DNA from: a candidate division WS6 bacterium GW2011_GWF2_39_15
GTDB taxonomy: Bacteria > Patescibacteriota > Dojkabacteria > SC72
Direction: 5' to 3'
Length of the DNA stretch: 51,563 bases
Assembly: GCA_000993565.1 (NCBI GenBank)
Contig: LBWK01000002.1
Location: 290,800 to 342,362, forward strand
Below, one piece after another: positions 2,365 through 50,831 of this stretch (position 1 is the first letter of the stretch; each line of letters opens with the position of its first letter). The position numbers were made by a program, and so were the translations under genes. Below the pieces are notes generated by a model. It saw nothing but the letters and a program-made list of their open reading frames with translations. It searched no databases and was not told where the DNA came from.

Positions 2365-2526
2365 ATGTGCATAAATAATTTAATTCTAATTTAAGTATAT
2401 CATCAGATTATTGGATAAAACATATTTGATAAATAGTATGTGTTTGTAATGAAAGCGAGAGTCATCTATTATTAAACAATAAGCAGGAACAGCTAATACC
2501 CATATACAACTTCTATATAGAAACTA

Positions 2527-5500
2527 GTGGAAAACCTGATAAAAAGACCTAAAAGAAAGAAAGAGAGCCTCCCGTTAATTCGGATATTTGCTTTTACGAT
2601 TTTTTTCGTTTCGGCAGCACTTCTTTTTCCTTTATTTGTTTCAAATGCTCGCAACTCACAGAAGGTTGATTTTTCCAGCAAACTAAATTTGAAATCCGTA
2701 TACTCGGCAGAGGAATCGGTTAAGGTAGATCTTACAGTGGCTGGTAAGGGTGCAAAGGTCTCGCTTATTGACCCGCGTGGGAAAATAAATAAAGTAAGCA
2801 GAAAGCTAAATGGATCCTCTGTGACCTTTGATGCAGATAGTTACAGCAGACCTGGGAAGTATAAACTGAAAATATTAAACGATAACGGTGATAAGATTGA
2901 AAAAGATTTTCAATGGGGAGTTCTAACGGTTAACACCAATAAAGCTGGTTACACACCTGGTGATCAGGTCTACCTTCAAATGGCCGTTTTAAATGAGTAC
3001 GGTCATACAATTTGTAACGCTAATTTAGAGCTTAAGATTAATAACGAGATCTTTTCGACAAGTGATGAGGGAATAGTAAGAAGCAAGGAATGTGGTGCAA
3101 ATAACGTTACGGATACCCCTGACTATTTTGCATACTACGATGTTCGAAGAATAGGAGTATATGATATTAAGTTGAAAAACCTGGACAATAACTTCGAGAT
3201 TACGGATACGTTTGAGGTAAAAGAGGGTATTCCATATGAAATAGAGCGTATAGGAGCTACACGTATTAATCCGTTTCGTGCGGATTACAAAATGACAATC
3301 AAGGTTAAAGCTAACCACTCATATTCAGGGCATATATCAGAGTCAATCCCTGAGGGTTTTGAATTAGTAGATTCTGTTGCTGACTGGGATGTGAATCTTG
3401 GGCAAGGGGAAGAAAAGACCTTCTCATATATTTACAGAGCACCGAAAAAAAGTCCTGAAATCTTTCTACTTGGCCCTGTTACAATGAGTGATTTCAGTGA
3501 GAGTAGGGTTTGGAAGCTTGCTTCGGATGCAACATGTACTGCATCCGTTTCAGGAAACTGGAGTAATAATGCAACTTGGGGGGGTGGTGCAAACTGTGGC
3601 AGTAGTTATCCTGGTGCAAGTGCTGCGGGTGATATTGTGATTATAAACTCTGGAGTTACTGTAACTTTGGATGTCAGCCCGGCATACTCCGTAGGTAATA
3701 TTACATTTAACGATCCTGTCGCAACCAATAATGGATTAACTTGGGGGGTAGGAAAATCATTGACCTCAACGGGTACGATGACGTTTACGACATCAACAGG
3801 GGCAGGTGATTCTCTTGTGACAGTTGGTGCAAGTCCGAATCAGTTTAATGGTGTAAATATTGCGATGGCAGGTGGGGCTTCGGGCTTTTCCTCTTTTACT
3901 GTCGGAACAGGCACTGCTGTCCTTTCCGGTAATGTCACGACCACTGGAACGGCTGCTAACTCGAGGTTCATCTTTAATGGTAACGGCAGACTAAATATTG
4001 CAGGTAATTTTCTCCCTGGAGCTTTAACCACCACATCTGGAACTGGCTCTACAATCAATTTTAATGGCAGTGGAGCACAGTCTACAATGATTTCAACCTC
4101 TTATAGAAAAATGGAAATTAATAATACTGCAGGAGCTGGAACGGGTGTGTCACTTGGGGCCGGCAATACAACAATTCTTGATACTCTTGATATAACTGAT
4201 GGGACCCTTAAAATTGCGTCAACCACCGGGAGTAAAATTTTTGTCGGGAAAGTGACGATCGGCAGCCAAGGTGTTTGGGATGATAGCATCAATGAAGCAA
4301 TCGTTATGAGGGGAGGTCTACAGAATGACGGGACATTAACCTCAGGTACAACTGCAGGCTATACATTCAACACTAATAGTCAAACGGTAAGTGGTACTGC
4401 GGCAATATCCATCTCTGGAACAGTTACAATTACAGGAGCAATTACTATCCAGAATAGCAATTCAAATGTAGTGGCCTTTACGGCTGCTTTAAATGGTAGT
4501 GTAGCAGGATCTACCTGGCAGCAGAACTCCGATTCATATTTGAAATTAGGAGCTGCCAGTACGTTTGCTACCGCAGGAACATTGACTGCTATAGCATCTG
4601 GAAACACAGTGGAATATAACCGTGCTAATACTCAAACAATTAAAGCTACGACATACAACAATCTCGTTCTCTCAAATACAAGTGCTAAAACAGCAGGTGG
4701 TGCCTTAACGGTTGAGGGGGATTTTACAGTCTCAGGCACTGCAAGTTTTACCTATGGTGCTTATACGCACTCTTTTAAAGGAAATTGGACTATTGATACT
4801 TCTGCAGCTACACCTTTAACAGCCACAGCAGGTAGTACAATAAACTTTAATACTCCGACTAACCCTGCTGCAACTGCAATATTGGCGGGGACGACGTCTG
4901 CGACTCTTGCCTTTGTAAATGTTAATATAAATAATACAAGCGGATTTTCAGTTGACGAGAACATTAGTACATCGACCTCAATGGTTGTAGCGACTGGAGT
5001 TACCTTTACACCTGGAGCAAGTTTCGTTGTAAATGGAGCTGGTACAATCAGCGGTGCAGGAACTGCTATCGCCCAGGTTACCCGTACTTCTGCTACGGCA
5101 GATTTTTCGAGCCAGTATACAATAGCAGGGAAGACACTCACCAATCTTGAAATTGAGTACGTTGCAAGCTCTAATCAAGTAGTAAGCGATGTAGCATATG
5201 GTAGTTTGAAAATAAGTAATACTGGAGGAGCAGTGGCGACTCTGGCTGCAACTACAACATTGACAGGCAATTTAACAATTAGTTCGGGGGGAGTTCTTAG
5301 TACGGGTAGTGATTATGGTTTAAATGTTGCTGGCAACTGGAGTAACTCTGGAACCTTTACTGCTAATAATGGAACGGTTACTTTTACAGGCACAGATTCA
5401 TCTACACAGGCAATTTCTGGGAACACCACATTCCATAATTTCACGGCTTCCACATCCTCAAATGCTGCTGGGAGAATATTACAATTTGCAGGTAATTCGA

Positions 5501-8500
5501 CTACTGTTGTTGGTAGTACTTGGACAATTACTGGGTACTCTGGAAAAGTGATCACGCTTCAATCTTCTAATACAAACTCATGGACAATACAGCCTGTTGC
5601 TGCCTCTGTTGATTATGCTTCAATCTCAAAATCGACATCATCCATCTCTATTTGTGCAATTCACTCTACAAACGGTGGAGACAATAACGCGAATTGGAAT
5701 ATCACGAGCGGTGATGAATGTGCATCGGCTAACCCCACGGGTTATTCCTTCCAAAGAAAGACTTGGTACGATGGTAGCCGGTATTGGAGAGCGTTTAACG
5801 ATACAACCGACTCAAGAATTGAATTTGAATATTCAACAGATGGGTCAAGCTGGACGGAAAATACTACTGCTAGAATATACTCTAATACAAAGGATTTTTC
5901 ACTTGTTGGAGGAAGTGCGAATGCTTATATTGCATATAAGATTGGGGATGATATTGAGGTGAAAAAGGCAACTAGTTATCCGGGAGTTAGCTTTTCATGG
6001 GGTAGTGCTTCAATTAGTTACAATGGTACGAGTAGTGATGATACTTATCAATATCCAACTATAACTCAGGATAGTAACAGTAAGATATGGGTATCGGCAA
6101 CGCATTTGAATACAGATACAGTGAATCTTCAGTCAACTTCTGATGGCGATGATGGGATGATGGATGATATCTCTCCTTTTGATTCCGATAATGGAGAAGA
6201 TACTTGGTATGGTTCCGGTTGGACTGGCAATAATGAGGTAGGAGGTGGAACATGGGGAAGTACTGCTTATGAATATCACTCGGGTATGCGTTTCCAGGCG
6301 ATTAATATTCCTCAGGGGGCTACTATAAGTTCGGCCCTTCTGCAGGTTTATTCCCAAGGTGGTAATGGTACACCTAGTGAGGTTCATGCAAGAGTTTACG
6401 GAGATGATGTTGATGATGCACCTGCCTGGTCGTCAAGTGACATGCCTCACGAAGTAACTAAAACGACTGCTTTCGTCGACTTTGACCCCTCCTCCTGGTC
6501 AACTGGTGAGTGGGTTACTATGCCTGATGTCTCAAGTATTATTACTGAAATTATTGGCAGGGCAAGCTGGGCAACAGGAAATGATTTAAGGTTATCCGTC
6601 ATTGACGATGGGACGACCAAACCTCCTGATCAGGCTGAGAATGGTATCTATTGGAGTGACTCTTCGGAAACTAACGGTGCTAAATTGACAATCCAATATA
6701 CACAACATGAATTTAAGGTTGTGCAGTCGTCAAGCGCCAATGATATTACATCTTGGGGAACCGCAATAGCCCTAGATGAAAGCGGTGAAAGTAACAGATA
6801 TGGAGCAATAACATCTCGAACAAATGGTTTCGTTTTTGCGATGTGGGTCGATGGTACTACTATAGAGTCCAAGAATTTCAATGGGACAAGCTGGGATGGT
6901 TCGCCTGCATCAGTAGGAACAGGAGTTACAGGGTTAAGTAATACAATTGCTGTCTTGGCCAACAGCTTGGGAAATGTTCATGCTGTATTTGTAGATTCAA
7001 GTAATCATATTGTTTATCGAGAGTATACATCAAGTTGGCAAACTGCAATTACGCTTGATAGTAATGTGGGGAATGCGTATCCAGGGATATCACTTAACTC
7101 ATCGAATTCTGAGATATATGCTTTTTGGGTTCGTGGTGGTGATCTTTTTTATAAAAGGTCTATATCCCCTTACTTATCTGATCAGTGGGATGGAGTTGCA
7201 ACCTTATGGCAGACAGCAGGTACTATAACATATCCGACGAGCAGTCTTAGTGGCTCGGGTAAAATATTTGTCGAGTGGTTTAACGGAAGTGAGGTGAGTT
7301 GGAATATTATTGATTTTCCTCCTTCTGCACATTCTTTTCAACGTAAAACGTGGTATGATGGCACTCGCTATTGGCGCAGTTATCATGATAGCTTGGATGC
7401 ACGTGTAGAGTTTGAGTATTCAACAGATGGTGAAAGTTGGACTGAGGATACAAGTGCTCGACTTAGTGTCAATTCCAACGATTTTTCAGTTCAGGCAGAT
7501 TCATCAGAGGCATATGTTACATATTCAACAACTACGGTTGAGAATACTGATAACCTGGTAACGGATAATCTAGTTGGATATTGGAAAATGAATGAAGGAA
7601 GCTGGAATGGTACTACTGACGAAGTTGTTGATTCATCTGGTAATTCTAACCATGGTGTACGAGTAGGCAATGCTAGCCCTACTGCAGGGAAATTCAGCTC
7701 CGGAGGTGTATTTGATGGTGCTGGAGACTATATTGAAGTCGACGATTCAGCTTCTCTGAATGTAACCAATTCAGTTAGTCTAGCAATGTGGATTAATCCA
7801 CAGGACACTAATGATTGGCAAATTCCAGTTGGAAAAGTCGCAAATGCCTCTTCGCATGATTCACCTTATTTTTCCTATGCTTTACAGCTGGATTCAACGG
7901 GTACTACTATTGAAACTCGCATCTGGATTTCAACAACATCAGATAGTGAAGATTGGTGCTATTCTAGTATTGATCTCACTGAAGGTAATTGGCATCACAT
8001 TGCAGGTACTTACGATGGATCCTTCCTAAAATTCTATCTTGATGGTGTGGAAACCTGTTCTCATAGTCTAACTGGCAGCATAAATACATTTTCTGCTCCT
8101 CTACGTTTAGGTATTAACGGTGGATTTGGTGAAGCCTTTGATGGTTTGGAGGACGATGTCCGGATTTACAATACCGCTCTTACCCCTGGTCAAATAGCAT
8201 CACTTGCACATCCAGGATATGACATAGAAGTTCGGAAAGCTTCATCTTACCCTGGAACTGGATTTTCATGGGGAAATCCAACGGTCGGTCTGAATGGTTC
8301 CTCATCGACGGATGCTTATAACTATCCTAGTCTCACACAAGATACTACGGATAAATTATGGGTAACTGCCACAAACGTTGAAGATAGTAATTATGCTACT
8401 TATGCAGTACAAGGTGCCGTTGCAAGCGATGAGACTGCTTGGAATGTGCCATCCTCGCTTGATAGTAGTACGAGTGCGAATCGTTATAGTGTGATAGTTC

Positions 8501-9828
8501 CTAGAACGAGTGGCTCTGTTTTTGCTCTGTGGGTGGATGGTACTGCAATAGAGTCTAAGAACTTTAATGGAGCAAGCTGGGATGGTTCGCCCGCTTCAGT
8601 TGGAACTGGGGTGAGTGGGTTAACTACGACTCTTTCCGCAGTTGCCGATAGTTCCGGAAACGTGCACGCTCTGTTTGTTGATTCTAGCAATAACACCAAA
8701 TACCGGAGATTCACTTCAAGTTGGCAGACCGCTGATACTTTGGATAGTAATACCGGTAATGCGTACCCTTCAATTTCACTGGATACTGTGACAACTAACC
8801 TTTATTCAATGTGGATTCGTGGAAACCATATATATTACAAAAAGGGGACATATTCGGCGGGTAGTTGGACATGGGATGTTACTGCAACAGACTGGTTACC
8901 TACTGGTACAAATACTTACTTATCGTCAAACTTTTCAGGAAATTCAACAGTCTATGTAGAATGGACAAGTGGAACATCTGCTTCATATTCTATTGACTGG
9001 GATTTTATTTACCAGGCTTCATCCAACTCTCCTGTAGTATCAAGTGTATCCCTAAACGGAGGAAATACCCTGACTTTGACGGAGGGAACTACAACCTCAA
9101 TTTCCTGGGCGGCAACTGTAACTGATAGTGACGGGTATGCAAATATCAGCTCGGCAACAGGCAAAGCTTATCGTTCAGGCGTAAGCGGGTCTCAGGCTTG
9201 TACCACGAGTAATGAAGACTGTTATGAAGATGTTAGCTGCAGTCTGTCATCGTGCGCTGGATCAAGCTGTACCGCGACATGTTCAGTAAACTTTGCTTTT
9301 TATGCAACCCCTACAGACGTAGGAAGTTTGCATCAGGCTGAATATTGGAGGGCATGGGTTGAAGCAACAGACGCACAGTCAAACTCAGGCTCGGAGTTTA
9401 GTGCTGCAGATAGCCCTGATTTGGCAAGTTCTGCCGGTGTCGAGATTACGAGCTCACTTGCATATGGATCGCTACTTCCGGGTGATGATACAGGAGCTAC
9501 TCCTGAAACGACTACGGTCACAAATACAGGGAATACTCAGTTAGATATTGAACTTTCGGGTGACGATCTGTGTAGCGACTATCCGACATGTAGCGGACCG
9601 CAAATTGGGGTTGGCTACCAAGAGTATAGTACTTCTACATTTGACTATGGAGTGGGTACAGGTTTAACGAGTAGTCCGTCACTTGTGAATATAAATCTTG
9701 GACTTGCAACAAGTGTTCCGTCAAATTCAACAGACACACTTTATTGGGGAATGGGAATACCTTCACCTCAGGAAAGTGGAAGCTATACTGGTGTAAATAC
9801 TATTACCGCTGTAAATGGAGGTTCTTAA
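2527..9828 (+). CDS. giant N-terminally anchored surface protein (2433 aa) with Ig-like domains, a beta-helix-like region, 2x BNR/Asp-box modules, LamG and DNRLRE-like inserts, and a Cys-rich C-terminal module
   Basis: GTG start follows an in-frame stop. The N-terminus is basic (KRPKRKKE) and followed by one TM helix (IRIFAFTIFFVSAALLFPLFV). A T/S/G/N/A-rich segment carries recurring GNW(S/T)N motifs. Asp-box motifs YSTDGSSWTE and YSTDGESWTE are present. LamG signature: LVGYWKMNEG...WHHIAGTYDG...FYLDGV...DDVRIYNTAL. There is no LPXTG or other C-terminal anchor. Confidence 0.9.
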   Translation: MENLIKRPKRKKESLPLIRIFAFTIFFVSAALLFPLFVSNARNSQKVDFSSKLNLKSVYSAEESVKVDLTVAGKGAKVSLIDPRGKINKVSRKLNGSSVTFDADSYSRPGKYKLKILNDNGDKIEKDFQWGVLTVNTNKAGYTPGDQVYLQMAVLNEYGHTICNANLELKINNEIFSTSDEGIVRSKECGANNVTDTPDYFAYYDVRRIGVYDIKLKNLDNNFEITDTFEVKEGIPYEIERIGATRINPFRADYKMTIKVKANHSYSGHISESIPEGFELVDSVADWDVNLGQGEEKTFSYIYRAPKKSPEIFLLGPVTMSDFSESRVWKLASDATCTASVSGNWSNNATWGGGANCGSSYPGASAAGDIVIINSGVTVTLDVSPAYSVGNITFNDPVATNNGLTWGVGKSLTSTGTMTFTTSTGAGDSLVTVGASPNQFNGVNIAMAGGASGFSSFTVGTGTAVLSGNVTTTGTAANSRFIFNGNGRLNIAGNFLPGALTTTSGTGSTINFNGSGAQSTMISTSYRKMEINNTAGAGTGVSLGAGNTTILDTLDITDGTLKIASTTGSKIFVGKVTIGSQGVWDDSINEAIVMRGGLQNDGTLTSGTTAGYTFNTNSQTVSGTAAISISGTVTITGAITIQNSNSNVVAFTAALNGSVAGSTWQQNSDSYLKLGAASTFATAGTLTAIASGNTVEYNRANTQTIKATTYNNLVLSNTSAKTAGGALTVEGDFTVSGTASFTYGAYTHSFKGNWTIDTSAATPLTATAGSTINFNTPTNPAATAILAGTTSATLAFVNVNINNTSGFSVDENISTSTSMVVATGVTFTPGASFVVNGAGTISGAGTAIAQVTRTSATADFSSQYTIAGKTLTNLEIEYVASSNQVVSDVAYGSLKISNTGGAVATLAATTTLTGNLTISSGGVLSTGSDYGLNVAGNWSNSGTFTANNGTVTFTGTDSSTQAISGNTTFHNFTASTSSNAAGRILQFAGNSTTVVGSTWTITGYSGKVITLQSSNTNSWTIQPVAASVDYASISKSTSSISICAIHSTNGGDNNANWNITSGDECASANPTGYSFQRKTWYDGSRYWRAFNDTTDSRIEFEYSTDGSSWTENTTARIYSNTKDFSLVGGSANAYIAYKIGDDIEVKKATSYPGVSFSWGSASISYNGTSSDDTYQYPTITQDSNSKIWVSATHLNTDTVNLQSTSDGDDGMMDDISPFDSDNGEDTWYGSGWTGNNEVGGGTWGSTAYEYHSGMRFQAINIPQGATISSALLQVYSQGGNGTPSEVHARVYGDDVDDAPAWSSSDMPHEVTKTTAFVDFDPSSWSTGEWVTMPDVSSIITEIIGRASWATGNDLRLSVIDDGTTKPPDQAENGIYWSDSSETNGAKLTIQYTQHEFKVVQSSSANDITSWGTAIALDESGESNRYGAITSRTNGFVFAMWVDGTTIESKNFNGTSWDGSPASVGTGVTGLSNTIAVLANSLGNVHAVFVDSSNHIVYREYTSSWQTAITLDSNVGNAYPGISLNSSNSEIYAFWVRGGDLFYKRSISPYLSDQWDGVATLWQTAGTITYPTSSLSGSGKIFVEWFNGSEVSWNIIDFPPSAHSFQRKTWYDGTRYWRSYHDSLDARVEFEYSTDGESWTEDTSARLSVNSNDFSVQADSSEAYVTYSTTTVENTDNLVTDNLVGYWKMNEGSWNGTTDEVVDSSGNSNHGVRVGNASPTAGKFSSGGVFDGAGDYIEVDDSASLNVTNSVSLAMWINPQDTNDWQIPVGKVANASSHDSPYFSYALQLDSTGTTIETRIWISTTSDSEDWCYSSIDLTEGNWHHIAGTYDGSFLKFYLDGVETCSHSLTGSINTFSAPLRLGINGGFGEAFDGLEDDVRIYNTALTPGQIASLAHPGYDIEVRKASSYPGTGFSWGNPTVGLNGSSSTDAYNYPSLTQDTTDKLWVTATNVEDSNYATYAVQGAVASDETAWNVPSSLDSSTSANRYSVIVPRTSGSVFALWVDGTAIESKNFNGASWDGSPASVGTGVSGLTTTLSAVADSSGNVHALFVDSSNNTKYRRFTSSWQTADTLDSNTGNAYPSISLDTVTTNLYSMWIRGNHIYYKKGTYSAGSWTWDVTATDWLPTGTNTYLSSNFSGNSTVYVEWTSGTSASYSIDWDFIYQASSNSPVVSSVSLNGGNTLTLTEGTTTSISWAATVTDSDGYANISSATGKAYRSGVSGSQACTTSNEDCYEDVSCSLSSCAGSSCTATCSVNFAFYATPTDVGSLHQAEYWRAWVEATDAQSNSGSEFSAADSPDLASSAGVEITSSLAYGSLLPGDDTGATPETTTVTNTGNTQLDIELSGDDLCSDYPTCSGPQIGVGYQEYSTSTFDYGVGTGLTSSPSLVNINLGLATSVPSNSTDTLYWGMGIPSPQESGSYTGVNTITAVNGGS
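5741..7329 (+). repeat. copy 1 of the intragenic ~530-aa BNR/Asp-box module, carrying a ~200-aa DNRLRE-like insert at about 6105-6705
   Basis: It aligns by eye block-for-block with 7330-9010. Shared blocks are FQRKTWYDGxRYWR, EFEYSTDGxSWTE, DIEVxKAxSYPG, KxWVxAT, WVDGTxIESKNFNGxSWDGSPASVGTGV, GNVHAxFVDSSN, TSSWQTA and LDSNxGNAYPxISL. Confidence 0.85.
7330..9010 (+). repeat. copy 2 of the intragenic BNR/Asp-box module, carrying a LamG insert at about 7560-8210
   Basis: It has the same conserved blocks as copy 1. The LamG domain is inserted between the block ending AYVTYS and the block GYDIEVRKASSYPG, which are contiguous in copy 1. Confidence 0.85.
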
Positions 9829-9902
9829 TTGACTTTACTTATTGGAAATGGGTATATTATGAAGAGGATTAACTCTCGAGATTCTGTATCTGTACAACTG
9901 TT

Positions 9903-11606
9903 ATGAAATACTTGCATCAACATATAAAAACTACAATCAAAGTCCTTTCACTAAGCATACCAATGCTGTTGCTCTTCTCTACAGGTATGTTTCTTTTAAA
10001 GATTTTTGCTGATTCCATTACGACATCCGTAACAGTGGGAAATAGTGCCCCTACAATTACTGCTGGTCCTGCTGAATCAGCTGAAAGCTCCAGTACGAGC
10101 CCAACGAATGTTGGTGCATCAGTTACTTTTCAGGCAACAGCAACGGACTCTAACGCTGAAAACTACTATTTAATTGTTTGTTCTTCAGACTCAGTTACCC
10201 CGCATAATGGAGCGGCTCCAACTTGTGGTGCGACACAATGGTGTGTCAGTACGAGTACCACCAGTGGCAGTCAGGCCAGTTGTAGCAGAACGGCATTAAT
10301 CGGTGATGCCGAGTCAAATGCATGGTATGCATTTGTTTGTGATGGTAATGCGAGTGCTGCAAATTGCACAGCGACAGGAAATCAGGGATCTGGAGGTACA
10401 GGCTCTCCTTTTGCTGTAAATCATGCCCCTGCGTTTAGTTCAGTGTCAAATGATGGACCAAAAAATCCCGGACAGACAGTAACATGGATTACTACATCAT
10501 CAGACTCTGATACCAGCGGCAGTGCTGATACAGTAAAGCTTTTGGTTTGTAAAACAACCGGTATTTCTGCAGATGCTTGCGATGGCGGAGCAGGAGATAC
10601 CTGGTGTTCAAGCAGTGCATCAGCATCTAATCCCACTTGCGGTTATTCAGTGCCGATTCCTACTGTAGACGGGGCAAGCAGTGCATACGTGTATATCGTT
10701 GACAGCCATAATTTCGGCAGTGCGGCGGCAAATCAAGGGAGTGATAGTGCTTATACAGTCAGCAATGTGGCACCTGTTGTTTCAAGCGTGACCATCAATG
10801 GTGGTAATGACATTGACCTTACGGAGGGTACAACAACCGATGTCGTTGTTACAGCAACCGTTACGGATAATAATAGCTGTGGAGGGGGCGAACTTGTTAC
10901 CACATATGGGTATGTATACCGATCAGGTAAAGGATATTCACTCTGTGATAGTGCAGGTGAGGCTGATAGCAATTTCTGCTATCCTGAGATCTCTTGTAGT
11001 GTGAGTGGAGGATCGTGCACAGGTACCTCTGACCCATCGGCGAATTACACTTGCACAGTGAGTATGCAGTACTATTCTGATCCAACAGATGTTGCCACTC
11101 AGTTTCCTACTGAAACATGGCTTTCAAACTTCAAAGCCGTAGATGATGATAGCGGATCTAACAATCTTGAAGTCGCTACAGGCATTGTTGTGAACTCTCT
11201 TACAGCACTTGATGTAACATCAGCCGTTAATTATGGTGCCCTCGATGTTGGTGAGAAGAACGACCCTCTTGATCAGATCACTACGATTACTCCAACAGGA
11301 AATGTAGGTCTTGATGAGGAGTTGTCTGGTACAGATATGTGTACTGACTCTCCAACCTGTTCGGGAGGTGTTATAGGAGTGACTTATCAAAAATATGCTC
11401 TCGCATCTTTAACTGCTTATGCAAGTGGAACGGCTCTCTCAGGGGTCGCTACGGAAGCAGAGTTGAATCTACAAAAAGCTACTTCAGGTACACCTACAAC
11501 AAAGAATACATGGTGGGGTATTCTAATTCCGACAGGTACAATCCCTGGTGTCTATAGCGGAAGTAATACGATTACAGCTGTAAAAGGAGAGGTTATTAAC
11601 TGGTGA
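9903..11606 (+). CDS. secreted Cys-rich protein (567 aa) with two tandem Cys-containing Ig/cadherin-like domains plus a C-terminal module paralogous to the C-terminus of the giant protein
   Basis: N-terminal signal/anchor (LSLSIPMLLLFSTGMFLLKIFA). Each domain begins with N-x-AP (GNSAPTI, VNHAPAF, SNVAPVV). The last ~280 aa align by eye with giant-protein residues ~2166-2433. Confidence 0.85.
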   Translation: MKYLHQHIKTTIKVLSLSIPMLLLFSTGMFLLKIFADSITTSVTVGNSAPTITAGPAESAESSSTSPTNVGASVTFQATATDSNAENYYLIVCSSDSVTPHNGAAPTCGATQWCVSTSTTSGSQASCSRTALIGDAESNAWYAFVCDGNASAANCTATGNQGSGGTGSPFAVNHAPAFSSVSNDGPKNPGQTVTWITTSSDSDTSGSADTVKLLVCKTTGISADACDGGAGDTWCSSSASASNPTCGYSVPIPTVDGASSAYVYIVDSHNFGSAAANQGSDSAYTVSNVAPVVSSVTINGGNDIDLTEGTTTDVVVTATVTDNNSCGGGELVTTYGYVYRSGKGYSLCDSAGEADSNFCYPEISCSVSGGSCTGTSDPSANYTCTVSMQYYSDPTDVATQFPTETWLSNFKAVDDDSGSNNLEVATGIVVNSLTALDVTSAVNYGALDVGEKNDPLDQITTITPTGNVGLDEELSGTDMCTDSPTCSGGVIGVTYQKYALASLTAYASGTALSGVATEAELNLQKATSGTPTTKNTWWGILIPTGTIPGVYSGSNTITAVKGEVINW

Positions 11607-11633
11607 TAACTATTTATATTTTTAATTACTAAA

Positions 11634-13004
11634 ATGAAAAAACTTGGACATTTAATGAAAATATGGCTTGTACTGATAGTTTTCTCACTTGGAGTAATGC
11701 CAGTTGAAGCAGGTTTTGGTGTATCACCAACGAATATATATAACGAGTACTTAAAACCCGGAGCCCATTTTGAGAAGACAATCACGCTTTCAAGATCAGA
11801 TCCTGTCGATGATCTTGATATTATTGTTGAGCCCAGTTTGGGAGAGATAGAATCCTGGTTCAAGTTTGATCCGGGTTTGAGGTTTGTATTTCCAAAAGGG
11901 CAGACAAGAAAGTCTTTTAAAGTGATCGTGAGTGTTCCTGAAACTGCTTCATATCGTAATTACGAGGGAATTATCCGAGTTAAAGCAATGAAAAAGGGTG
12001 AAGATGTTAAGGGGGTTTCTATTGTTAAAGGAGCAAGGCTAGATGTTGACTTGGTTACTACAGAGCTCACAGTTAATGAGATAAAAGTAAAATCACTCAA
12101 AATGCTTGATACAAAAGACGGGCAGCCTCTAACTCTTGCTATGGAGGTTGAAAATGTCGGTAATATAGAAGTTTCTCCAACCGCTAAGATAAAGATTCTA
12201 ACACTTGATATGCAGGAGCTTGAGGAACATACTGCAAGTAATTTTGGAAGTGTTAAACCCAACGAGACTAAGACTTTGTATGCCAAATTCACAAGCTCAT
12301 TACCTGAAGGGGAGTATTTTGTGGAGGCGGAGGTTCTTGGAGAAAATATTGTAGTTAGAAAGGAGAGACTCGTATTGAGAATAATGGGTAAAGTTGCTCA
12401 ATTTGATGAAGGAAAGGATAATAGTAATATGTTAACAGGACTAGTAAACTTTGTGAGTGATAATGCTCTAAAAATCGGTTTTGGTCTTATGGTTTCCGCT
12501 ATAGCATTCTTACTCTTAACACGGCTTTGGAAGTCGAGAAAAATGCAGGAGAAACACTCTGAAAAGTGGGCTTTGTTACTTGGTGAGTCTACACTTTCGC
12601 GAATTGTTATATCAATAGCTATTGGAGTTATTGTTACACTTATAATGTTCTTTATTCTTTCTCTTATACCGTCACCAAAGGATCAAAAAGATGATAGCAC
12701 TTCCATTACTCAGAACCAAGACAATACCGTTGAGGTGAGTAATGTTAAAGGTGCGAAAACAGATTCAAAAAACAATATCTCTCCGGATCCTTTAGTTGTA
12801 GGAGTACATGATAAGGATGGAAAGCTTATGTATCCTATCTATTCACAGCCATTTGTTACTTCGAATGTTTTATACTATGCAAAGGAGAATGAAAAGATGG
12901 CCGTTATAGAAGAGAAGGCTGACTGGTACCGTGTAGAGCTGTCTAATGGACAGAGCGGATGGTTGGAAAAGACAAGCGTAAAAGATAGTGACACACAAGA
13001 ATAA
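11634..13004 (+). CDS. signal-peptide protein with two Ig/PapD-like beta-sandwich domains, two TM helices and a C-terminal SH3b domain (456 aa)
   Basis: Signal peptide IWLVLIVFSLGVMPVEA. Domain 1 reads GFGVSPTNIYNEYLKPGAHFEKTITLSRS...KSFKVIVSVPE...YEGIIRVKA. Domain 2 reads PLTLAMEVENVGNIEVSP...GEYFVEAEV. The TM helices are IGFGLMVSAIAFLLLTRLW and IVISIAIGVIVTLIMFFILSLI. SH3b-like tail: AVIEEKADWYRVELSNGQSGWLEKTSV. Confidence 0.85.
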   Translation: MKKLGHLMKIWLVLIVFSLGVMPVEAGFGVSPTNIYNEYLKPGAHFEKTITLSRSDPVDDLDIIVEPSLGEIESWFKFDPGLRFVFPKGQTRKSFKVIVSVPETASYRNYEGIIRVKAMKKGEDVKGVSIVKGARLDVDLVTTELTVNEIKVKSLKMLDTKDGQPLTLAMEVENVGNIEVSPTAKIKILTLDMQELEEHTASNFGSVKPNETKTLYAKFTSSLPEGEYFVEAEVLGENIVVRKERLVLRIMGKVAQFDEGKDNSNMLTGLVNFVSDNALKIGFGLMVSAIAFLLLTRLWKSRKMQEKHSEKWALLLGESTLSRIVISIAIGVIVTLIMFFILSLIPSPKDQKDDSTSITQNQDNTVEVSNVKGAKTDSKNNISPDPLVVGVHDKDGKLMYPIYSQPFVTSNVLYYAKENEKMAVIEEKADWYRVELSNGQSGWLEKTSVKDSDTQE

Positions 13005-27925: not shown

Positions 27926-28702
27926 CTACCCTTCAATATCTTCCGTAGTCAGGCAACCCACAGTTGTATAGCCTGATAAATCATAAATTTCTTTTCCCAT
28001 GTATTCATTCCAATCTTTGTAGAAACGCGTTAACTTGTTCGTTATCTCATCCTTATTCTCTGGGTGAAGGTGCAGGTATGGGCAAACATGCTTCGGAGTT
28101 TTTCCGCCTAACAATAATCCAATTTCTACCAGACCCTGGCCTGAAGGACCAAATGACATATAGTCACTAACCTCTGCTACTATATCTCCTGCCTTCACTT
28201 TGTCCCCAACTTTAACGGTTGGGTTAATAACATGTTCCAACTCAAAAATGTATGGGGAACTCGTATTATCTCCCGTCATGGCTATAGAATAATCATCACT
28301 GTAAAGGGTTGAGATATTGGTAACAACACCATCTATGATTGAATGGACTTTTGTTCCCAGAGGAGCAAAGAAAGTAGGCTGGGGATTGTTTTTTGCAGGA
28401 TTCTCCGAGTTACCCGGAATATAGAAGCCATAGTCCTGGTAAATGGTATCAAAGAAAAGTGATTTCTTGGTAAAGAGGAAATCTCCGGCCATACCTGTTT
28501 TAGGGTTATATGGTTGAATATCAATGGGTAAGCTTTTTATTAATGTCGGTTCCGGGGCTTTGGTAATCAGGTCCGTTACCTTTTCTAACAGAGAATTGTT
28601 AGGAGTCTCTTTTTCATGTGAGTTCAGGATTTTTGGAAGGAAGATTACTCCTAAAACCACAATTATAACCAAACCCAATATTACAAATCTATATTTTTTC
28701 AT
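27926..28702 (-). CDS. secreted LytM/M23-like protein, apparently a degenerate domain
   Basis: Signal anchor FVILGLVIIVVLGVIFL. APLGTKVHSIIDGVV...VKVGDKVKAGDIVAEV resembles the M23 barrel, but I cannot find the HxxxD and HxH zinc ligands in their usual positions. Confidence 0.45.
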   Translation of the reverse strand: MKKYRFVILGLVIIVVLGVIFLPKILNSHEKETPNNSLLEKVTDLITKAPEPTLIKSLPIDIQPYNPKTGMAGDFLFTKKSLFFDTIYQDYGFYIPGNSENPAKNNPQPTFFAPLGTKVHSIIDGVVTNISTLYSDDYSIAMTGDNTSSPYIFELEHVINPTVKVGDKVKAGDIVAEVSDYMSFGPSGQGLVEIGLLLGGKTPKHVCPYLHLHPENKDEITNKLTRFYKDWNEYMGKEIYDLSGYTTVGCLTTEDIEG

Positions 28703-31857: not shown

Positions 31858-32397
31858 TTGATTATGACGGATATTGAATTGGTAACAGCCTCGTTAAAAG
31901 ACAAGGAGAATTTTAGACATATTGTTGATAAATACCAAGCCCCTCTTTTGCGATATATTAAGAGGATCTTATATTTATCTATTAATGACGCTGAAGATAT
32001 ATTACAAGAAGCGTTTATTACTATTTACCAGAACCTAAATCAATATGATGGAAAATTTAAACTCTCTTCGTGGGTCTATCGTATAGCGCATAATATTGCC
32101 ATCAGTCATATAAGACATAATGGAAAGCATCTCGGAATATCAATAACTACTGAGGAATTAGAAAAGATTCAAAATGAAGATACATCTTTAGATATTGATT
32201 TATCAAATTCTGAATTCGTAGAGAAGTTAACAGCCAGACTGGATCATAAATACAAAGAGGTTATATTATTAAGGTTTTTTGAAGATAAATCATATACAGA
32301 AATATCGGATATTTTGAGAATTTCAAAAGGAACCGTTGGGAGTTTAATCAATAGAGGATTATCTAAACTAAAAAAATTACTAAAAGATGAAAAATAA
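31858..32397 (+). CDS. ECF-type RNA polymerase sigma-70 family factor
   Basis: Region 2 (ILQEAFITIYQNLNQYD...SSWVYRIAHNIAISHIR) and region 4 HTH (YKEVILLRFFEDKSYTEISDILRISKGTVGSLINRGLSKLKKLL). The start is TTG at 31858 or ATG at 31864. Confidence 0.85.
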   Translation: MIMTDIELVTASLKDKENFRHIVDKYQAPLLRYIKRILYLSINDAEDILQEAFITIYQNLNQYDGKFKLSSWVYRIAHNIAISHIRHNGKHLGISITTEELEKIQNEDTSLDIDLSNSEFVEKLTARLDHKYKEVILLRFFEDKSYTEISDILRISKGTVGSLINRGLSKLKKLLKDEK

Positions 32398-34844: not shown

Positions 34845-35999
34845 TTATTTATCAGCAAATATTCGTACATAATCACTATAAATATATGATTGTCCATATT
34901 TAACATCTTTGTCTTTCTTCGTTAGGATATTTAGATTAATCATTTTCTTAATTAGTCTATTGGCACCTTCTCTTGAGAAGCCTGTCCACCCTTGTATTGT
35001 TGCACTGTTTACAATCGGTTGTCCATAGAGTTTTGTAAGGACTTGCATAATTGATTCTGCCGATCTTTTACCCAGCTGCTGGACTTTTTTCATATCTCTT
35101 TCTCTTATTTCGGTAATTGATGCGACAGACTCAATTGCCTCATTTGAAATCTCTATTACGCCATCAAGGAAGAAATCTATCCACCTTTCGACTTGACCTT
35201 CGTGATAATTTTCTAACCTTTGATAATAGGTTTTTTGGTATTTTTTAAAATATGAAGAAAGAAAAAGTATAGGCTTCTCTAAATATTGCTGTGACCATAG
35301 GAAGAAAGTGGTTAGCATTCTTCCGGTTCGCCCGTTGCCATCAAGAAAAGGATGTATTAGCTCAAATTGTGAATGGATTATTCCGGCTTTAATAATAGTT
35401 GGTACATTATCATTAGCATTTATATATTTCTCTAGATCGTCTAGAGATTTAAGCATCTCTTGCGGTGGGGGAGGTACAAATACACTGTTAGAAGGTTTCG
35501 TTCCCCCAATCCAGTTTTGACTTTTCCTGAATTCACCTGGAGCCGAATAGTGAGTTGATCTTGCATCAGTCATTAATTGCAGGTGAAGATCTCGGATAAA
35601 TCTCAGTGAGAAAGGTACATTTCCGTTTTCCATTCTTTTCATCCCGTAGTTTAATGCCTTTATGTAATGTAAAATATCATCTACATCGTCTGGAACACTA
35701 TCGCTTGTTTTTACTTCAGCTTCTATTGCGTCTACCATGGTTGCCATTGTTCCTTCGATTTGACTGGATGAAGCCGCGTCCTTTCTTAGGTACATTAATA
35801 TAAAGAAATCTGAATCTGGAAGTAATTTTGTAATTCCATCAAGTTTCCCTATTAGTCTACCTGCTTCACTACTTTTTTTAAGTATTTCTGGAGAAAAAAT
35901 ATTTAATCTTTTTGATGGAAACGGATTAGGGATAAAAGCAATGTAATCCTCTCCATTTAAACTTTGTTTAATTTTCTTTCCTATTTCTATCGTTTCCAT
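34845..35999 (-). CDS. fic: Fic family protein (AMPylase-type) with an intramolecular inhibitory motif and a C-terminal winged-helix-like domain
   Basis: Canonical Fic motif HPFLDGNGRTGR. The upstream SSQIEG fits the inhibitory (S/T)xxxE(G/N) motif of Fic_N-type, class II-like proteins. I place the start at ATG 35999 (METIEIGKK), because the ORF-track extension to 36074 translates the palindromic repeats. Confidence 0.9.
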   Translation of the reverse strand: METIEIGKKIKQSLNGEDYIAFIPNPFPSKRLNIFSPEILKKSSEAGRLIGKLDGITKLLPDSDFFILMYLRKDAASSSQIEGTMATMVDAIEAEVKTSDSVPDDVDDILHYIKALNYGMKRMENGNVPFSLRFIRDLHLQLMTDARSTHYSAPGEFRKSQNWIGGTKPSNSVFVPPPPQEMLKSLDDLEKYINANDNVPTIIKAGIIHSQFELIHPFLDGNGRTGRMLTTFFLWSQQYLEKPILFLSSYFKKYQKTYYQRLENYHEGQVERWIDFFLDGVIEISNEAIESVASITEIRERDMKKVQQLGKRSAESIMQVLTKLYGQPIVNSATIQGWTGFSREGANRLIKKMINLNILTKKDKDVKYGQSYIYSDYVRIFADK

Positions 36000-36000
36000 A

Positions 36001-36073
36001 TTTGTTGACAAGAGTAAATTAGATGTCAACAAAGTATATATATTTGTTGACAAGATGTAAATAGATGTCAACA
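36001..36073 (-). promoter_or_regulatory. two direct copies of a ~31-nt palindromic element (GTTGACA-N17-TGTCAAC) immediately upstream of fic, a putative operator/promoter
   Basis: 36001-36032 reads TTTGTTGACAAGAGTAAATTAGATGTCAACAA and 36043-36073 reads TTTGTTGACAAGATGTAAATAGATGTCAACA, a 42-nt period. Each arm contains the -35-like hexamer TTGACA when read on either strand. Confidence 0.5.
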
Positions 36074-36274
36074 TTCTTAAAATTAAGCCTTATAGTGTAA
36101 AAGAGTATAAATGGGTCTTTTATTGGGAAGTTAGAAGTTGGTATTTTGTATCGTAGGTCGTACAAGTCTGGAACAAAAAACGAGAACTATTGTATATTAT
36201 TATATCTAGGACACTTAAAGAAAAAGCGTGCAAAGTAAGGTAGTTGTTACTAACTTGATATATTCGTTAAAAAT

Positions 36275-37003: not shown

Positions 37004-37834
37004 ATGCCCATCAAACTCACGGATATACTCAAAACATATTCCCTTGTTCTGGATAGCCAGTATCAAATACTCAAATCAGAGATAAGGGGACTAAGAGCAA
37101 TAAACTTTCTGGATCTTCTTGTATATCACACAACAACAATTGAAAGAGAGCTTAGAAGAATGGATATAGGATCAACATATGAAGTTGATGTTTTTTTAGA
37201 TATAAAAAAGGAAGGATCTAAACCATATAAACTGGTAACGGCCAAACTCCATGATACATACCTGCTGACGTTAATATCTCTGGAAGAGATAAATGAACTC
37301 GCTACAACTGTTGAAACCCTTGAACACTATGCATACACGGATCAATTAACCGGAGCATTGAACAGACATGCCTATTGGAAACTCCTTGAAAACCTTATAT
37401 ACGATGAAGAAAGAGAAAATAAAGGATTAGGCATTGTGTTCGTTGATCTTGATAACCTGAAATCTATAAACACAACGCAGGGGTATTTAGGAGGCGATAG
37501 GGCAATTGCGTTTGTCGCTCAATGTATTGAAAAAAACTTAAGAAAATCAGACCTATTTGTCCGTATTGGTGGTGATGAATTTATAGTTATATTTAAAATC
37601 GATCCTCGTAAAGATTTCACTGTTGATGATATGGCCCAAAGAATTTTAAGAAGAATAAGAAGAGAGGGGAAGGAAGAAATAACTGCATCAATTGGTACGT
37701 ATACAGTCAAACCAGGTATCCTTCGCGGCATTGAAAAGGCTAAAGACTGGAAGAAAGAATGGAATAGAATTATTGATGAAGTAGATAAAAAGGTTAAGGA
37801 AGCTAAAAGACTCGGTAAAAACCGAGTCTCCTAG
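37004..37834 (+). CDS. GGDEF-domain diguanylate cyclase with an I-site
   Basis: YTDQLTGALNRHAYW, VFVDLDNLKSINTTQGYLGGDRAI and RKSDLFVRIGGDEFIVIF give an RxxD located five residues upstream of an intact GGDEF. The ~100-aa N-terminal region is unassigned. Confidence 0.85.
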   Translation: MPIKLTDILKTYSLVLDSQYQILKSEIRGLRAINFLDLLVYHTTTIERELRRMDIGSTYEVDVFLDIKKEGSKPYKLVTAKLHDTYLLTLISLEEINELATTVETLEHYAYTDQLTGALNRHAYWKLLENLIYDEERENKGLGIVFVDLDNLKSINTTQGYLGGDRAIAFVAQCIEKNLRKSDLFVRIGGDEFIVIFKIDPRKDFTVDDMAQRILRRIRREGKEEITASIGTYTVKPGILRGIEKAKDWKKEWNRIIDEVDKKVKEAKRLGKNRVS

Positions 37835-49066: not shown

Positions 49067-49367
49067 ATGATGTAAAAATAATGTTAACTCCGGAAGATAA
49101 AATTGGTTGGGTCTCGGATTATGACTGACTCCGAGTTGTTTGAAGGATCTCAAACGAAGGTCTTTTTCTTGCGTTTAAAGGATTCCTTTGATTAAACATA
49201 TTAAATTATAGCAGAGATCGGCTGTCAGAACCACTAGGCTAATACGGTTGGTAGTGTGGTCATAGAATTAGTGTCTATCCCATAGCTGCACAGAGGCTTT
49301 TGTGTCTATACTCGAATGTTTGAATGTGGTACTTTATAAGTAGTATTAAGTTAAAATAATCTTGGTA

Positions 49368-50831
49368 ATGCAAGAGCAATATTTAGGATTAGGAGACCAG
49401 TCTGTCCATAACGGTCAATATATGCTGACAGTATACAAAGTGGTTCCTTATGGTGAAGAGACTATAGAGAGTGCTGCTACAGAATTGGCTGCGGAGTCAT
49501 CTTCAGGTTCAAACCTTAAAGTCTCTACTGCTACAAACTATTCTATGAATCTGGATGCAATTGTTTATGATATAGATCACGATAGAAATCTTGTATATAT
49601 TGCATATCCCTGGCTTATGTTTGATAGAGGTGGGAATATCCAGAACATTTTGACCTTTGTTGCCGGTAATATATATGGAATGGGTAATCTCAAGGAGTGT
49701 AAACTCTTGGATGTGTGGTTTCCTCCGCAGATGTTAGTTCAGTATGACGGACCAAGTTACACGCTAGATGATATGAGAAAGTATCTCAATGTTTACGATA
49801 CTCCAATACTTGGAACAATTATCAAGCCTAAAATAGGTCTAACCTCAACGGAGTATGCCGAGCTTTGCTATGACTTTTGGGTTGGAGGAGGGCATTTTGT
49901 TAAGAATGATGAGCCACAGGCGGATCAGCAGTTTGCCCCTTTTGAGAAGATGGTTGACTCAGTTAGGATTGCTATGGATAAAGCGGAGAGGGAGACGGGT
50001 CATACTAAAGTTCATTCCTTTAACGTTTCAGCGGCTGATTATGACACCATGTTAAGAAGGACTGAATATATCCGTAATGTGATGAAACCGGGAAGCTACT
50101 CCTATCTTATAGATGGGATTACAGCAGGGTGGATGGCTGTTCAGACGTTACGCAGACACTATCCCGATGTATTTATTCATTTCCACAGGGCGGGGCACGG
50201 TGCTTTTACAAGAACTGAGAATCCAATAGGCTTTTCAGTTCCGGTTCTAACTAAATTTGCAAGACTTGCAGGGACATCAGGTGTTCATACAGGTACAGCA
50301 GGGGTAGGGAAGATGTCGGGGGATGGTAGAGAGGATATAGGGGCTGCAAAACAGGCATTGAAACTTCAGGCAAAAGGAGATTTCTTTAATCAGGTTTGGG
50401 CGGAGATACCCGAAAGAGATCCTGATATGCAGGAGATGATGAAGCGAGAAGAGATGTTCTGGGGTATGCCTACTCGAGAGCTTGCAAGAATTAGAAGAGA
50501 GAAAAAGCTTCAAATGGAAGTGACTGAAGAGCATACTATGTGGAGAGTGATTAAAAAGACTTCGCCGATTGTCTCCGGCGGGTTGAACCCTGTTCTTTTA
50601 CCAGAGTTTCTTGATGTATTTGGATCCATAGACTTTATAGTTACAATGGGTGGAGGTATTCATTCACATCCTCAAGGTACCGGTGCTGGTATTAAAGCTG
50701 TATTCCAGGCCTACGAGGCATGGATGGCCAATATCCCTCTTGAAGAGTATTCAAGAGATAAAGAGGAGCTAAGAGTTGCTATGGATTTCTACAATAGGTA
50801 TGGAACGCAGGCACATAGAGAGAAGGTTTAA
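49368..50831 (+). CDS. rbcL: ribulose-1,5-bisphosphate carboxylase/oxygenase large subunit, form II/III-like
   Basis: GTIIKPKIGL (the two catalytic Lys), FVKNDEPQ (carbamylated Lys plus Asp/Glu metal ligands), HFHRAGHG, SGVHTGTAG and GGGIHSHPQGTGAGIKA. No small-subunit gene is adjacent. The start is ATG 49368 (or TTG 49362). Confidence 0.9.
   Translation: MQEQYLGLGDQSVHNGQYMLTVYKVVPYGEETIESAATELAAESSSGSNLKVSTATNYSMNLDAIVYDIDHDRNLVYIAYPWLMFDRGGNIQNILTFVAGNIYGMGNLKECKLLDVWFPPQMLVQYDGPSYTLDDMRKYLNVYDTPILGTIIKPKIGLTSTEYAELCYDFWVGGGHFVKNDEPQADQQFAPFEKMVDSVRIAMDKAERETGHTKVHSFNVSAADYDTMLRRTEYIRNVMKPGSYSYLIDGITAGWMAVQTLRRHYPDVFIHFHRAGHGAFTRTENPIGFSVPVLTKFARLAGTSGVHTGTAGVGKMSGDGREDIGAAKQALKLQAKGDFFNQVWAEIPERDPDMQEMMKREEMFWGMPTRELARIRREKKLQMEVTEEHTMWRVIKKTSPIVSGGLNPVLLPEFLDVFGSIDFIVTMGGGIHSHPQGTGAGIKAVFQAYEAWMANIPLEEYSRDKEELRVAMDFYNRYGTQAHREKV

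Follow-up and report, generated by a model that had tools for sequence, protein, structure and literature searches.

A three-gene surface cassette of Patescibacteria as a probable counterpart of the Firmicute WxL clusters

To our knowledge, WxL-type display of surface proteins has so far been known only from Lactobacillales and Bacillales. Firmicute WxL clusters are ordered as a large protein, an optional LPXTG protein, one to three small WxL proteins and a protein with DUF916 and DUF3324 domains, the WxLIP. The short and long WxL proteins and the WxLIP form a complex on the cell surface (PMC10599100), a hairpin strand of the DUF916 domain is predicted by AlphaFold to make the beta-sandwich of WxL complete (PMC10599100), and a complex of a WxLIP with a long WxL protein has been solved (9i25). 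Here we describe three genes, g1, g2 and g3, in a 51,563-nucleotide (nt) stretch of contig LBWK01000002.1 from the candidate division WS6 bacterium GW2011_GWF2_39_15, a member of the Dojkabacteria within the Patescibacteria, or Candidate Phyla Radiation (CPR); the whole stretch is called the window below. The genes encode a giant surface protein (g1), a small conserved secreted protein (g2) and a membrane protein (g3). We propose, with a probability of about 60%, that they are the CPR counterpart of the WxL/Csc clusters, in which g3 would capture the C-terminal module shared by g1 and g2 by beta-strand augmentation and display both proteins non-covalently.

The three genes lie on the + strand in the same order as in the WxL clusters, separated by 74 and 27 nt. 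This agrees exactly with a sequence-only reading of the window, which had described three co-directional genes with this spacing and had likened the gene logic to that of WxL/Csc clusters. The likeness held when genuine clusters were fetched from Firmicute plasmids by means of the conserved DUF916 motif of PMC10599100: their gene order is the same, short and long proteins sharing a C-terminal domain stand beside one WxLIP-type gene, and the large proteins, like g1, carry passengers of lectin or adhesin type. Promoters and terminators of the locus were scanned for by consensus matching only; no convincing terminator was found in this way between g1, g2 and g3, and co-transcription of the three genes is plausible. 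A promoter-like site in the gap between g1 and g2 suggests that g2 and g3 may also be transcribed on their own, independently of g1.

The relationship of g3 to WxLIPs is visible in both structure and sequence. A Foldseek search of 350,542 PDB chains with g3 ranked 9i25_C first (E 1.8e-12), the entry being 'WxLIP from Enterococcus faecium locus A bound to long WxL', and placed 9i1y_A and 9i1y_B third and fourth (E 4e-11 to 1.4e-10). These two entries are the only solved WxLIPs and represent EfmWxLIP1, the DUF916/DUF3324 protein of Enterococcus WxL loci. An alignment of ten of the plasmid WxLIPs matches 9i1y and 9i25_C with E 3e-71, which identifies the plasmid proteins as the family found by Foldseek. 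In full-length profile comparisons with hhalign, long g3 forms matched WxLIP with a probability of 92.1% (E 6e-7, 245 columns), and short g3 forms matched the 10 DUF916+DUF3324 proteins with 97.3% (E 1.9e-11, 281 columns). These values are inflated because signal peptides and transmembrane (TM) helices align, so the comparison of ectodomains is the fair one. Here the short g3 forms aligned with WxLIP over 222 collinear columns (probability 62.8%, P 7e-5, score 38.5) and a merged g3 profile over 222 columns (48.0%, P 1.8e-4, score 36.0). As controls on the merged profile, 60 block-shuffled nulls scored 16.8 +/- 2.8 (maximum 24.6) and the reversed profile 14.3, giving a z of ~6.8. Conserved motifs also correspond. 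The GFGVSP of g3 is placed like the FxVxP of WxLIP directly after the signal peptide, and LKPG like YFDLxxxPG; the g3 motif P..A.Y..Y.G.I resembles MP.....G.I and, in the DUF3324 half, L..GEYF resembles Lk.GkY.

We conclude with moderate confidence from these comparisons that g3 is related to WxLIP only distantly, at the superfamily level, had not been annotated as such before and stands outside the Pfam DUF916 and DUF3324 families; its lineage appears to be a new branch of the DUF916/DUF3324 superfamily. The sequence-only reading had offered a PapD-type or a DUF916-type fold for the first domain of g3. The DUF916 option is upheld by the top Foldseek rank and by hhalign, while PapD-like domains also match but more weakly (FimC, E 4e-9), and the Pfam models miss the domain. 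When domains 1 and 2 of g3 were compared separately with DUF916 and DUF3324, cognate and cross comparisons were not discriminated. PDB sequence and profile searches gave nothing beyond SH3 and LamG, and the other matches of g3 are weak (camelysin, CARDB, DUF7490). Peptidase_M73 is likewise matched weakly in 9 of 67 g3 homologs (best E 6e-5) and in none of the g2 homologs.

In the AlphaFold2 model of g3 (predicted local distance difference test, pLDDT, 86), a signal peptide is followed by beta-sandwiches at residues 29-142 and 150-251 and then by two helices (264-300 and 320-344); a disordered linker leads to an SH3 fold at 398-445. The mature N-terminus, AGFGVSP, is the most conserved segment of the protein (majority fraction 0.89), and a hairpin at 109-142 holds the conserved GVSIVKGAR, with a dip in pLDDT at 121-130. 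The SH3 region (amino acids, aa, 400-449) exceeds the thresholds of both SH3_4 (29.9 bits, cut-off 24.1) and SH3_3 (28.3 bits, cut-off 27), which places it among the SH3b domains; SH3_3 is matched in all 67 g3 family members scanned. Like the targeting domains of lysostaphin-type hydrolases and TIGR04211 proteins, these C-terminal 55 aa probably bind the cell wall, but in g3 a TM hairpin links the SH3b to a WxLIP-like anchor, and the SH3b is dispensable, since 19 of 50 homologs lack it.

The number of TM segments follows the presence of the SH3b. Among the same 50 homologs, the 31 with an SH3b have two TM segments (28 proteins) or six (3 proteins), and the 19 without it have exactly one, a short tail and a total length of 302-394 aa. 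This parity puts the SH3b outside the cell, on the same side as the immunoglobulin (Ig)-like domains, and indicates that family members share a core made up of a signal peptide, a pair of Ig-like domains and a TM helix. The SH3-less homologs thus have the architecture of WxLIPs, which measure 320-380 aa (PMC10599100), to which the g3 of this lineage adds a second TM helix and the SH3b. Because the chain of variants with two TM helices and an SH3b has to come back to the outer side of the cell, a WxLIP-type TM helix would lie in the bacterium's own membrane; the WxLIP helix has been proposed to sit in the membrane of the host (PMC10599100). The model, the Pfam matches and the TM parity agree with the anatomy first read from the sequence (signal peptide, two beta-sandwiches, two TM helices and an extracytoplasmic SH3b). 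Three Dojkabacteria-type variants of 626-627 aa carry six TM segments, which sit between the Ig-like domains and the SH3b (L009 2508-4391, L010 4194-6074 and L016 1563-3443).

The second element of the cassette is the C-terminal module shared by g1 and g2. BLASTP aligns residues 2159-2431 of g1 with 281-562 of g2 (41% identity over 285 aa, E 1e-40), so that the paralogy of about 280 aa claimed earlier is borne out over ~270 aa, and the shared part comprises two domains, D3 and the terminal D4. The module of g1 has the same cysteine pattern, 6+2, as D3-D4 of g2, and g3 has no Cys. Trp-x-Leu is absent from the module and the position of the distal motif reads TITAV, as expected from the initial description of a Cys-rich module without WxL motifs. 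In g2 as a whole there are 18 Cys (3.2%), distributed 6/4/6/2 over four domains and nearly all invariant in the family; the even number per domain suggests intradomain disulfides in g2 and in the g1 module. Neither the g1 nor the g2 module matched Pfam, NCBIfam or PDB sequences, and no well-described domain with another role was found to cover it, a point on which the sequence-only reading had made its proposal depend. The one model to touch it, GH123_N_2, matches the last D4 hairpin weakly and below threshold, in 22 of 50 family members. Judged by these searches, the D3-D4 module appears to be a new domain family.

The module is widespread and its position is fixed. An exhaustive profile search found it in 2316 representative clusters (50% identity), with E<=1e-30 in 952, and in every case the module occupies the extreme C-terminus of its protein, whose length ranges from 600 to 7203 aa. 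The 31 large proteins of other loci are mosaics of different passengers in which only the last ~265 aa are common to nearly all. Modules of the large and of the small type fall into separate lineages: in 98 of 109 cases, a module and its nearest neighbour from another locus agree in type, whereas the large and small modules of one locus share only 37% identity; the duplication that separated them is therefore old. This split parallels that between long and short WxL proteins (PMC10599100). In several of the largest predicted proteins of the searched collection, a full g2-like unit stands at the C-terminal extreme (P0314, 7203 aa; P0315, 7063 aa; P0327, 5891 aa; P0304, 5806 aa).

Synteny ties the module to g3. 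Homologs of g3 fall into 78 clusters from Woesebacteria, Dojkabacteria and other Patescibacteria, for which the best available name is 'SH3 domain-containing protein', and those of g2 into more than 618 clusters (at 90% identity), all 'hypothetical', with 50-71% identity and a near-fixed length of ~560 aa; no Pfam or NCBIfam family was found for g2. In a census in which a g2 profile was run against one genome per species, 76 loci were detected, with hosts in Dojka-, Shapiro-, Doudna-, Nomura-, Kaiser-, Sung-, Staskawicz-, Peregrini- and Paceibacteria, among others; the six-frame open reading frames (ORFs) of these loci were then searched with hidden Markov models from sub-alignments. A full-length g2 is adjoined by a g3 homolog on the same strand in 51 of the 53 evaluable loci, with a median gap of ~35 nt, and in 24 of 49 loci a large protein that has only the C-terminal module lies upstream; many loci carry one or two further g2 paralogs. 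When the look-up began with g3 homologs, the most divergent ones included, module-bearing neighbours were found in 6/6 cases. The association of g3 with the module, whose failure the sequence-only reading had named as the outcome that would undo it, is thus conserved, and adjacency is near-obligate even though g3 identity between CPR classes is only 30-50%. The more than 618 clusters of g2 and the 2316 of the module argue that the locus pattern is not due to chance. The most divergent locus, L096, is a minimal cassette with a 902-aa large protein bearing the module, a 302-aa small protein reduced to a signal peptide, the conserved strand described below and D3-D4, and a 322-aa g3 with one TM helix.

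Several cassette-bearing metagenome-assembled genomes (MAGs) have record titles naming Gammaproteobacteria, Pseudomonadales, Caldisericales or Dehalococcoidia (L007, L014, L022, L035, L037, L042, L068, L070, L073 and L074). These titles are probably loose taxonomic labels or reflect mis-binned contigs, not true occurrences outside the Patescibacteria.

By analogy with the WxLIP-WxL complex, we envisage the following arrangement. The Ig-like domains of g3 would stand outside the cell with the TM hairpin in the cell's own membrane, and in Microgenomates- and Dojkabacteria-type lineages the SH3b would provide an extra tie to the wall. Both g1 and g2 would be secreted, their disulfide-bonded D3-D4 serving as the docking unit, and a strand or hairpin of g3 domain 1, for which the hairpin at 109-142 is a candidate donor, would pair with D4, the module's last domain. 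In this way g1 may be held at the surface as a variable, lectin-bearing adhesin, and g2 as a conserved 'short' partner or platform.

Several observations weigh against this proposal. The TM-scores between g3 and WxLIP are low (0.21/0.37), because the interdomain angles differ, and in the same Foldseek search the Vpr fibril, RbmA, ASH domains and FimC came within one to three orders of magnitude of WxLIP. The ectodomain probabilities in hhalign reach only 48-63%. The Pfam checks called for by the sequence-only reading brought nothing: the models of DUF916 (PF06030), DUF3324 (PF11797) and WxL matched none of 117 family members at E<=10, SCPU, TasA and PapD gave no membership among the same 117, NCBIfam placed none of g1, g2 and g3 in any of these families, and precomputed Pfam matches in 55 clusters of short-form g3 included no DUF916 or DUF3324. 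No WxL model matched g1 or g2 in Pfam scans, nor any of 50 g2 homologs (E<=10). D4 and the WxL-domain alignment can be aligned collinearly by hhalign, their ends meeting at an FG motif and at the distal 'Y..TLTW.L' ('YSG.NTI.AV' in g2), with P 0.045; the reversed-profile control gave P 0.024 and the alignment of the full-length module with WxL gave nothing, and we rejected the match as evidence that D4 is homologous to the WxL domain. Neither a small LPXTG protein (CscD) nor a sortase, typical of WxL clusters, is encoded by an ORF in or beside the cassette. The conservation of g2 is far greater than that of g3, and the free conserved N-terminal strand and C-terminal Trp of g2 are not explained by a simple role as 'short' partner.

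Other features set the cassette apart from WxL clusters. The shared WxL domain has 160-190 aa, two Trp-x-Leu motifs and belongs to PF13731, whereas the CPR module has two domains, contains Cys and measures ~270 aa; g1 and g2 are thus not the two or more adjacent PF13731 proteins that define a WxL cluster. The CPR 'short' protein, at 560 aa, carries an additional pair of Cys-rich Ig domains, and its conservation far exceeds that of WxL proteins. The hosts also differ, being Lactobacillales and Bacillales in one case and Patescibacteria in the other. Our literature search, which cannot be exhaustive, found nothing on the cassette or on a link between CPR and WxL or DUF916.

The properties of g2 raise an alternative. 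Its AlphaFold2 model (pLDDT 88) opens with a hydrophobic helix at the N-terminus, is disordered at 31-45 and then forms four beta-sandwich domains, for which Foldseek returned generic multi-Ig matches with low TM-scores (mastigoneme, alpha-2-macroglobulin, integrin, contactin) that are uninformative on the terminal domain. The mature protein begins with a strand (ADSVTTSVTVGNSAP) that has a majority fraction of 0.86, as against 0.68-0.73 for the domains of g2, and in which T41, V45 and P50 are invariant. This strand has a pLDDT below 50, being disordered in the monomer model, and belongs to no domain of its own; it resembles the G-strand and NxAP linker that close each Ig domain, as in PFAVNHAP (169-176) and AYTVSNVAP (283-291). 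A strict pattern recovers the motif in at least 39 of the 69 small-type proteins, the small protein of L096 has it too, and the C-terminal Trp is invariant in small-type proteins. Together, the free strand, the invariant Trp and the high conservation suggest an exchange of strands between subunits.

Thus g2 could be a fibre subunit that polymerises head to tail, each N-terminal strand completing or extending a beta-sheet in the terminal domain of the next molecule; g1, which has the acceptor module and no such strand, would be the tip adhesin, and g3 a membrane chaperone or basal anchor resembling PapD or FimC. The retention of the most conserved, domain-less strand even in the minimal 302-aa protein, the invariant Trp end, the conservation and fixed length expected of a polymer subunit, and the two or three g2 copies at many loci all fit such a fibre. 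So does the comparison with chaperone-usher pili, in which the partner likewise has tandem Ig-like domains (FimC being among the structural matches of g3, E 4e-9), the free N-terminal strand of the small subunit is likewise conserved, and the tip adhesins FimH and PapG are mirrored by a large protein that bears only the C-terminal 'pilin-like' module. However, the cassette partner is anchored in a membrane and not soluble, there is no outer membrane, and the subunits have four domains and 560 aa. PapD_N, PapD_C and usher models found no match in scans of the cassette and family, and the cassette encodes no usher, sortase or dedicated signal peptidase; with no SipW-type signal peptidase gene in the cassette and M73 matches weak or absent, it is no TasA/camelysin system either. 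D4 appears in the AlphaFold2 model to possess its own last strand (TITAV), and WxLIP exceeds FimC as a match in both structure and sequence. We consider a strand-exchange fibre unlikely, though it is the main rival to the display model.

Somewhat more doubtful still is a broader form of this idea, in which a disulfide-stabilised, strand-exchanged fibre or lattice of g2 polymer would have giant adhesins of up to 7,000 aa plugged into it by their C-terminal module, with a WxLIP-like protein as membrane-bound chaperone and anchor. If true, it would represent a counterpart of chaperone-usher pili that works with a single membrane and no usher, and the main host-attachment organelle of many CPR episymbionts, and the Firmicute WxL and CPR systems would derive from one ancient monoderm surface-assembly machine.

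A lattice resembling a surface layer (S-layer), built of g2, tied to membrane and wall by g3 and with g1 as an occasional insert, is quite improbable. It would suit an abundant, conserved, multi-copy protein of strung Ig-like domains with a promoter-like site of its own. Foldseek with g2 did list the Deinococcus HPI S-layer protein (8cka_A, E 8e-7) at rank 15, and S-layers have been reported for CPR cells, as cited in PMC4736985 and bioRxiv 10.1101/2024.05.28.596244. The Foldseek matches of g2 are nonetheless generic, with low TM-scores, no known S-layer anchoring motifs were seen, S-layer proteins usually diverge between classes whereas g2 keeps 50-70% identity, and two ancient module lineages with variable giants suit display better. 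That the three are simply envelope proteins transcribed together, with domains in common but no binding between them, and with g3, for example, an independent wall sensor or hydrolase-targeting protein, is very improbable: SH3b proteins are common and functionally diverse, but this reading is at odds with the near-obligate adjacency across CPR classes, the tripartite logic kept even in the minimal cassette and the homology of g3 to a protein solved with its cluster partner (9i25).

As a counterpart of the WxL/Csc clusters, the cassette would extend the WxL-type display principle to a distant phylum, with a new docking module and an extended anchor. Host attachment of CPR bacteria is a central open question, and beyond type IV pili we know of almost nothing on how their giant surface proteins are held. 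The cassette offers a testable mechanism, with one conserved anchor and one conserved docking module; the latter occurs in over 2,300 clusters, on proteins that reach ~7,200 aa. The D3-D4 module could also act as a sequence tag with which to catalogue CPR adhesins.

The giant protein of the window illustrates the variable part of such a system. Its N-terminus has a charged stretch followed by a hydrophobic segment, after which the sequence reads SNA|RN. The sequence-only reading took this segment for a TM anchor; the hydrophobic stretch is indeed present, but it could be cleaved as a signal peptide instead of forming a permanent anchor. In other loci the large proteins begin with a hydrophobic or signal sequence, which in L096, for example, is an ordinary signal peptide. 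An Ig/MG2-like region (aa 50-340) precedes a long region dominated by small and polar residues, which matched no family in Pfam or in the PDB search and is possibly a beta-solenoid stalk. Two homologous scaffold units of ~530 aa each follow, with 52-60% identity in three collinear blocks and different inserts. The insert of the second includes the sole Pfam domain recognised in g1, Laminin_G_3 (aa 1730-1891, E 1.2e-29), a region that also matches an arabinanase module in the PDB (5hon_A, E 1.7e-7). A BNR/Asp-box propeller was sought through the pattern S-x-[DN]-x-G-x-x-[WF], which was not found in g1, and we make no claim for one. Large Cys-rich extracellular proteins have been noted in Peregrinibacteria, with a role in attachment proposed in general terms (PMC4736985); like g1 they are large, secreted and Cys-containing, but the module, the small paralog and the WxLIP-like partner are not described there.

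The D1-D2 pair of g2 also occurs inside giant CPR ORFs that lack D3-D4 (L074, L075, L078, L080 and L081; 919 to 4082 aa), which suggests that the pair is an independent mobile module. The features of the locus are collected in Table 1.

Table 1. Positions of the cassette genes and of the features within and around them, numbered from the first letter of the window
Feature	Position (nt)	Strand	Basis and remarks
Promoter-like site 5´ of g1, TTGTAA-17-TATTAT	2444..2472	+	Consensus scan, 9/12 matches; weak
g1, 'large-type' surface protein, 2433 aa, GTG start	2527..9828	+	Variable passenger domains and conserved C-terminal module
g1 hydrophobic N-terminal segment, aa 17-45, signal peptide or signal anchor	2575..2661	+	Read from translation
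g1 Thr/Ser/Gly/Ala/Asn-rich region (57-71%), aa 340-1040	3544..5646	+	Composition per 100 aa
g1 scaffold unit A, aa 1070-1595, acidic ~190-aa insert at aa 1195-1388	5734..7311	+	Internal repeat
g1 scaffold unit B, aa 1599-2157	7321..8997	+	Internal repeat; LamG/concanavalin-like lectin insert aa ~1699-1895, nt ~7621-8211
g1 C-terminal shared module, 'large-type', aa 2165-2433	9019..9825	+	Ig-like D3 (6 Cys) and terminal D4 (2 Cys)
Promoter-like site in g1-g2 gap, TTGACT-18-TATATT	9829..9858	+	Consensus scan, 10/12 matches; best of region
g2, secreted 'small-type' protein, 567 aa	9903..11606	+	Highly conserved, four beta-sandwich domains
g2 mature N-terminal strand DSITTSVTVGNSAP, aa 37-50	10011..10052	+	Most conserved g2 stretch; candidate exchanged or donated strand
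g2 D1-D2, Cys-rich Ig-like pair (6 + 4 invariant Cys)	10053..10763	+	AlphaFold2, conservation
g2 shared module D3-D4, aa 288-567	10764..11603	+	Ends in invariant Trp567
g3, WxLIP-like membrane protein, 456 aa	11634..13004	+	Signal peptide, two Ig-like domains, TM hairpin, SH3b
g3 domain 1, DUF916-like, aa 27-145	11712..12068	+	Near-invariant GFGVSP at start
g3 domain 2, DUF3324-like/CARDB-like beta-sandwich, aa 146-255	12069..12398	+	AlphaFold2; weak Wzt_C, TRAP_alpha and CARDB matches
g3 TM hairpin, TM1 ~279-299, basic cytoplasmic loop, TM2 ~323-345	12468..12668	+	AlphaFold2 helices, hydropathy
g3 SH3b, aa ~396-450, predicted extracytoplasmic	12819..12983	+	Pfam and TM parity

The cassette is flanked by ordinary chromosomal genes, among them those for dUTPase, an NYN protein, an aldo-keto reductase, TrmB, enolase, TsaD/TsaE-Sua5, the RuBisCO large chain and an M23 peptidase; together with a GC content of ~38%, these are the surroundings of the cassette, and the flanking genes fit the chromosome of a small-genome bacterium. 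The RuBisCO large-chain homolog lies at 49362-50831 (+), and the window also encodes a Fic protein (34845-36074, -), a GGDEF diguanylate cyclase (37004-37834, +), an ECF-type (extracytoplasmic function) sigma factor (31858-32397, +) and the M23 peptidase (27926-28702, -). Divergent from g1, in an otherwise empty 485-nt gap on its 5´ side, is an ORF of 61 aa with two hydrophobic segments (MMKDVRSHANANNAVYGLGFIGATVYFLSTATSFWIGLFGILKAMVWPAFLVYEMFKFLMK; 2179-2364, -). Beyond it, and also divergent from the cassette, a 637-aa protein (128-2041, -) matches no Pfam family and has no conserved linkage in other loci. On Firmicute plasmids, pairs of WxL and DUF916/DUF3324 genes adjoin CpaF/VirB11-type conjugation genes, as in Bacillus anthracis pXO1 (L091, 4298-6059) and Listeria pLM5578 (L092, 4259-6014), and 154 of 309 plasmids with a WxLIP gene are typed as conjugative, which hints at a role of WxLIPs in mating-pair adhesion.

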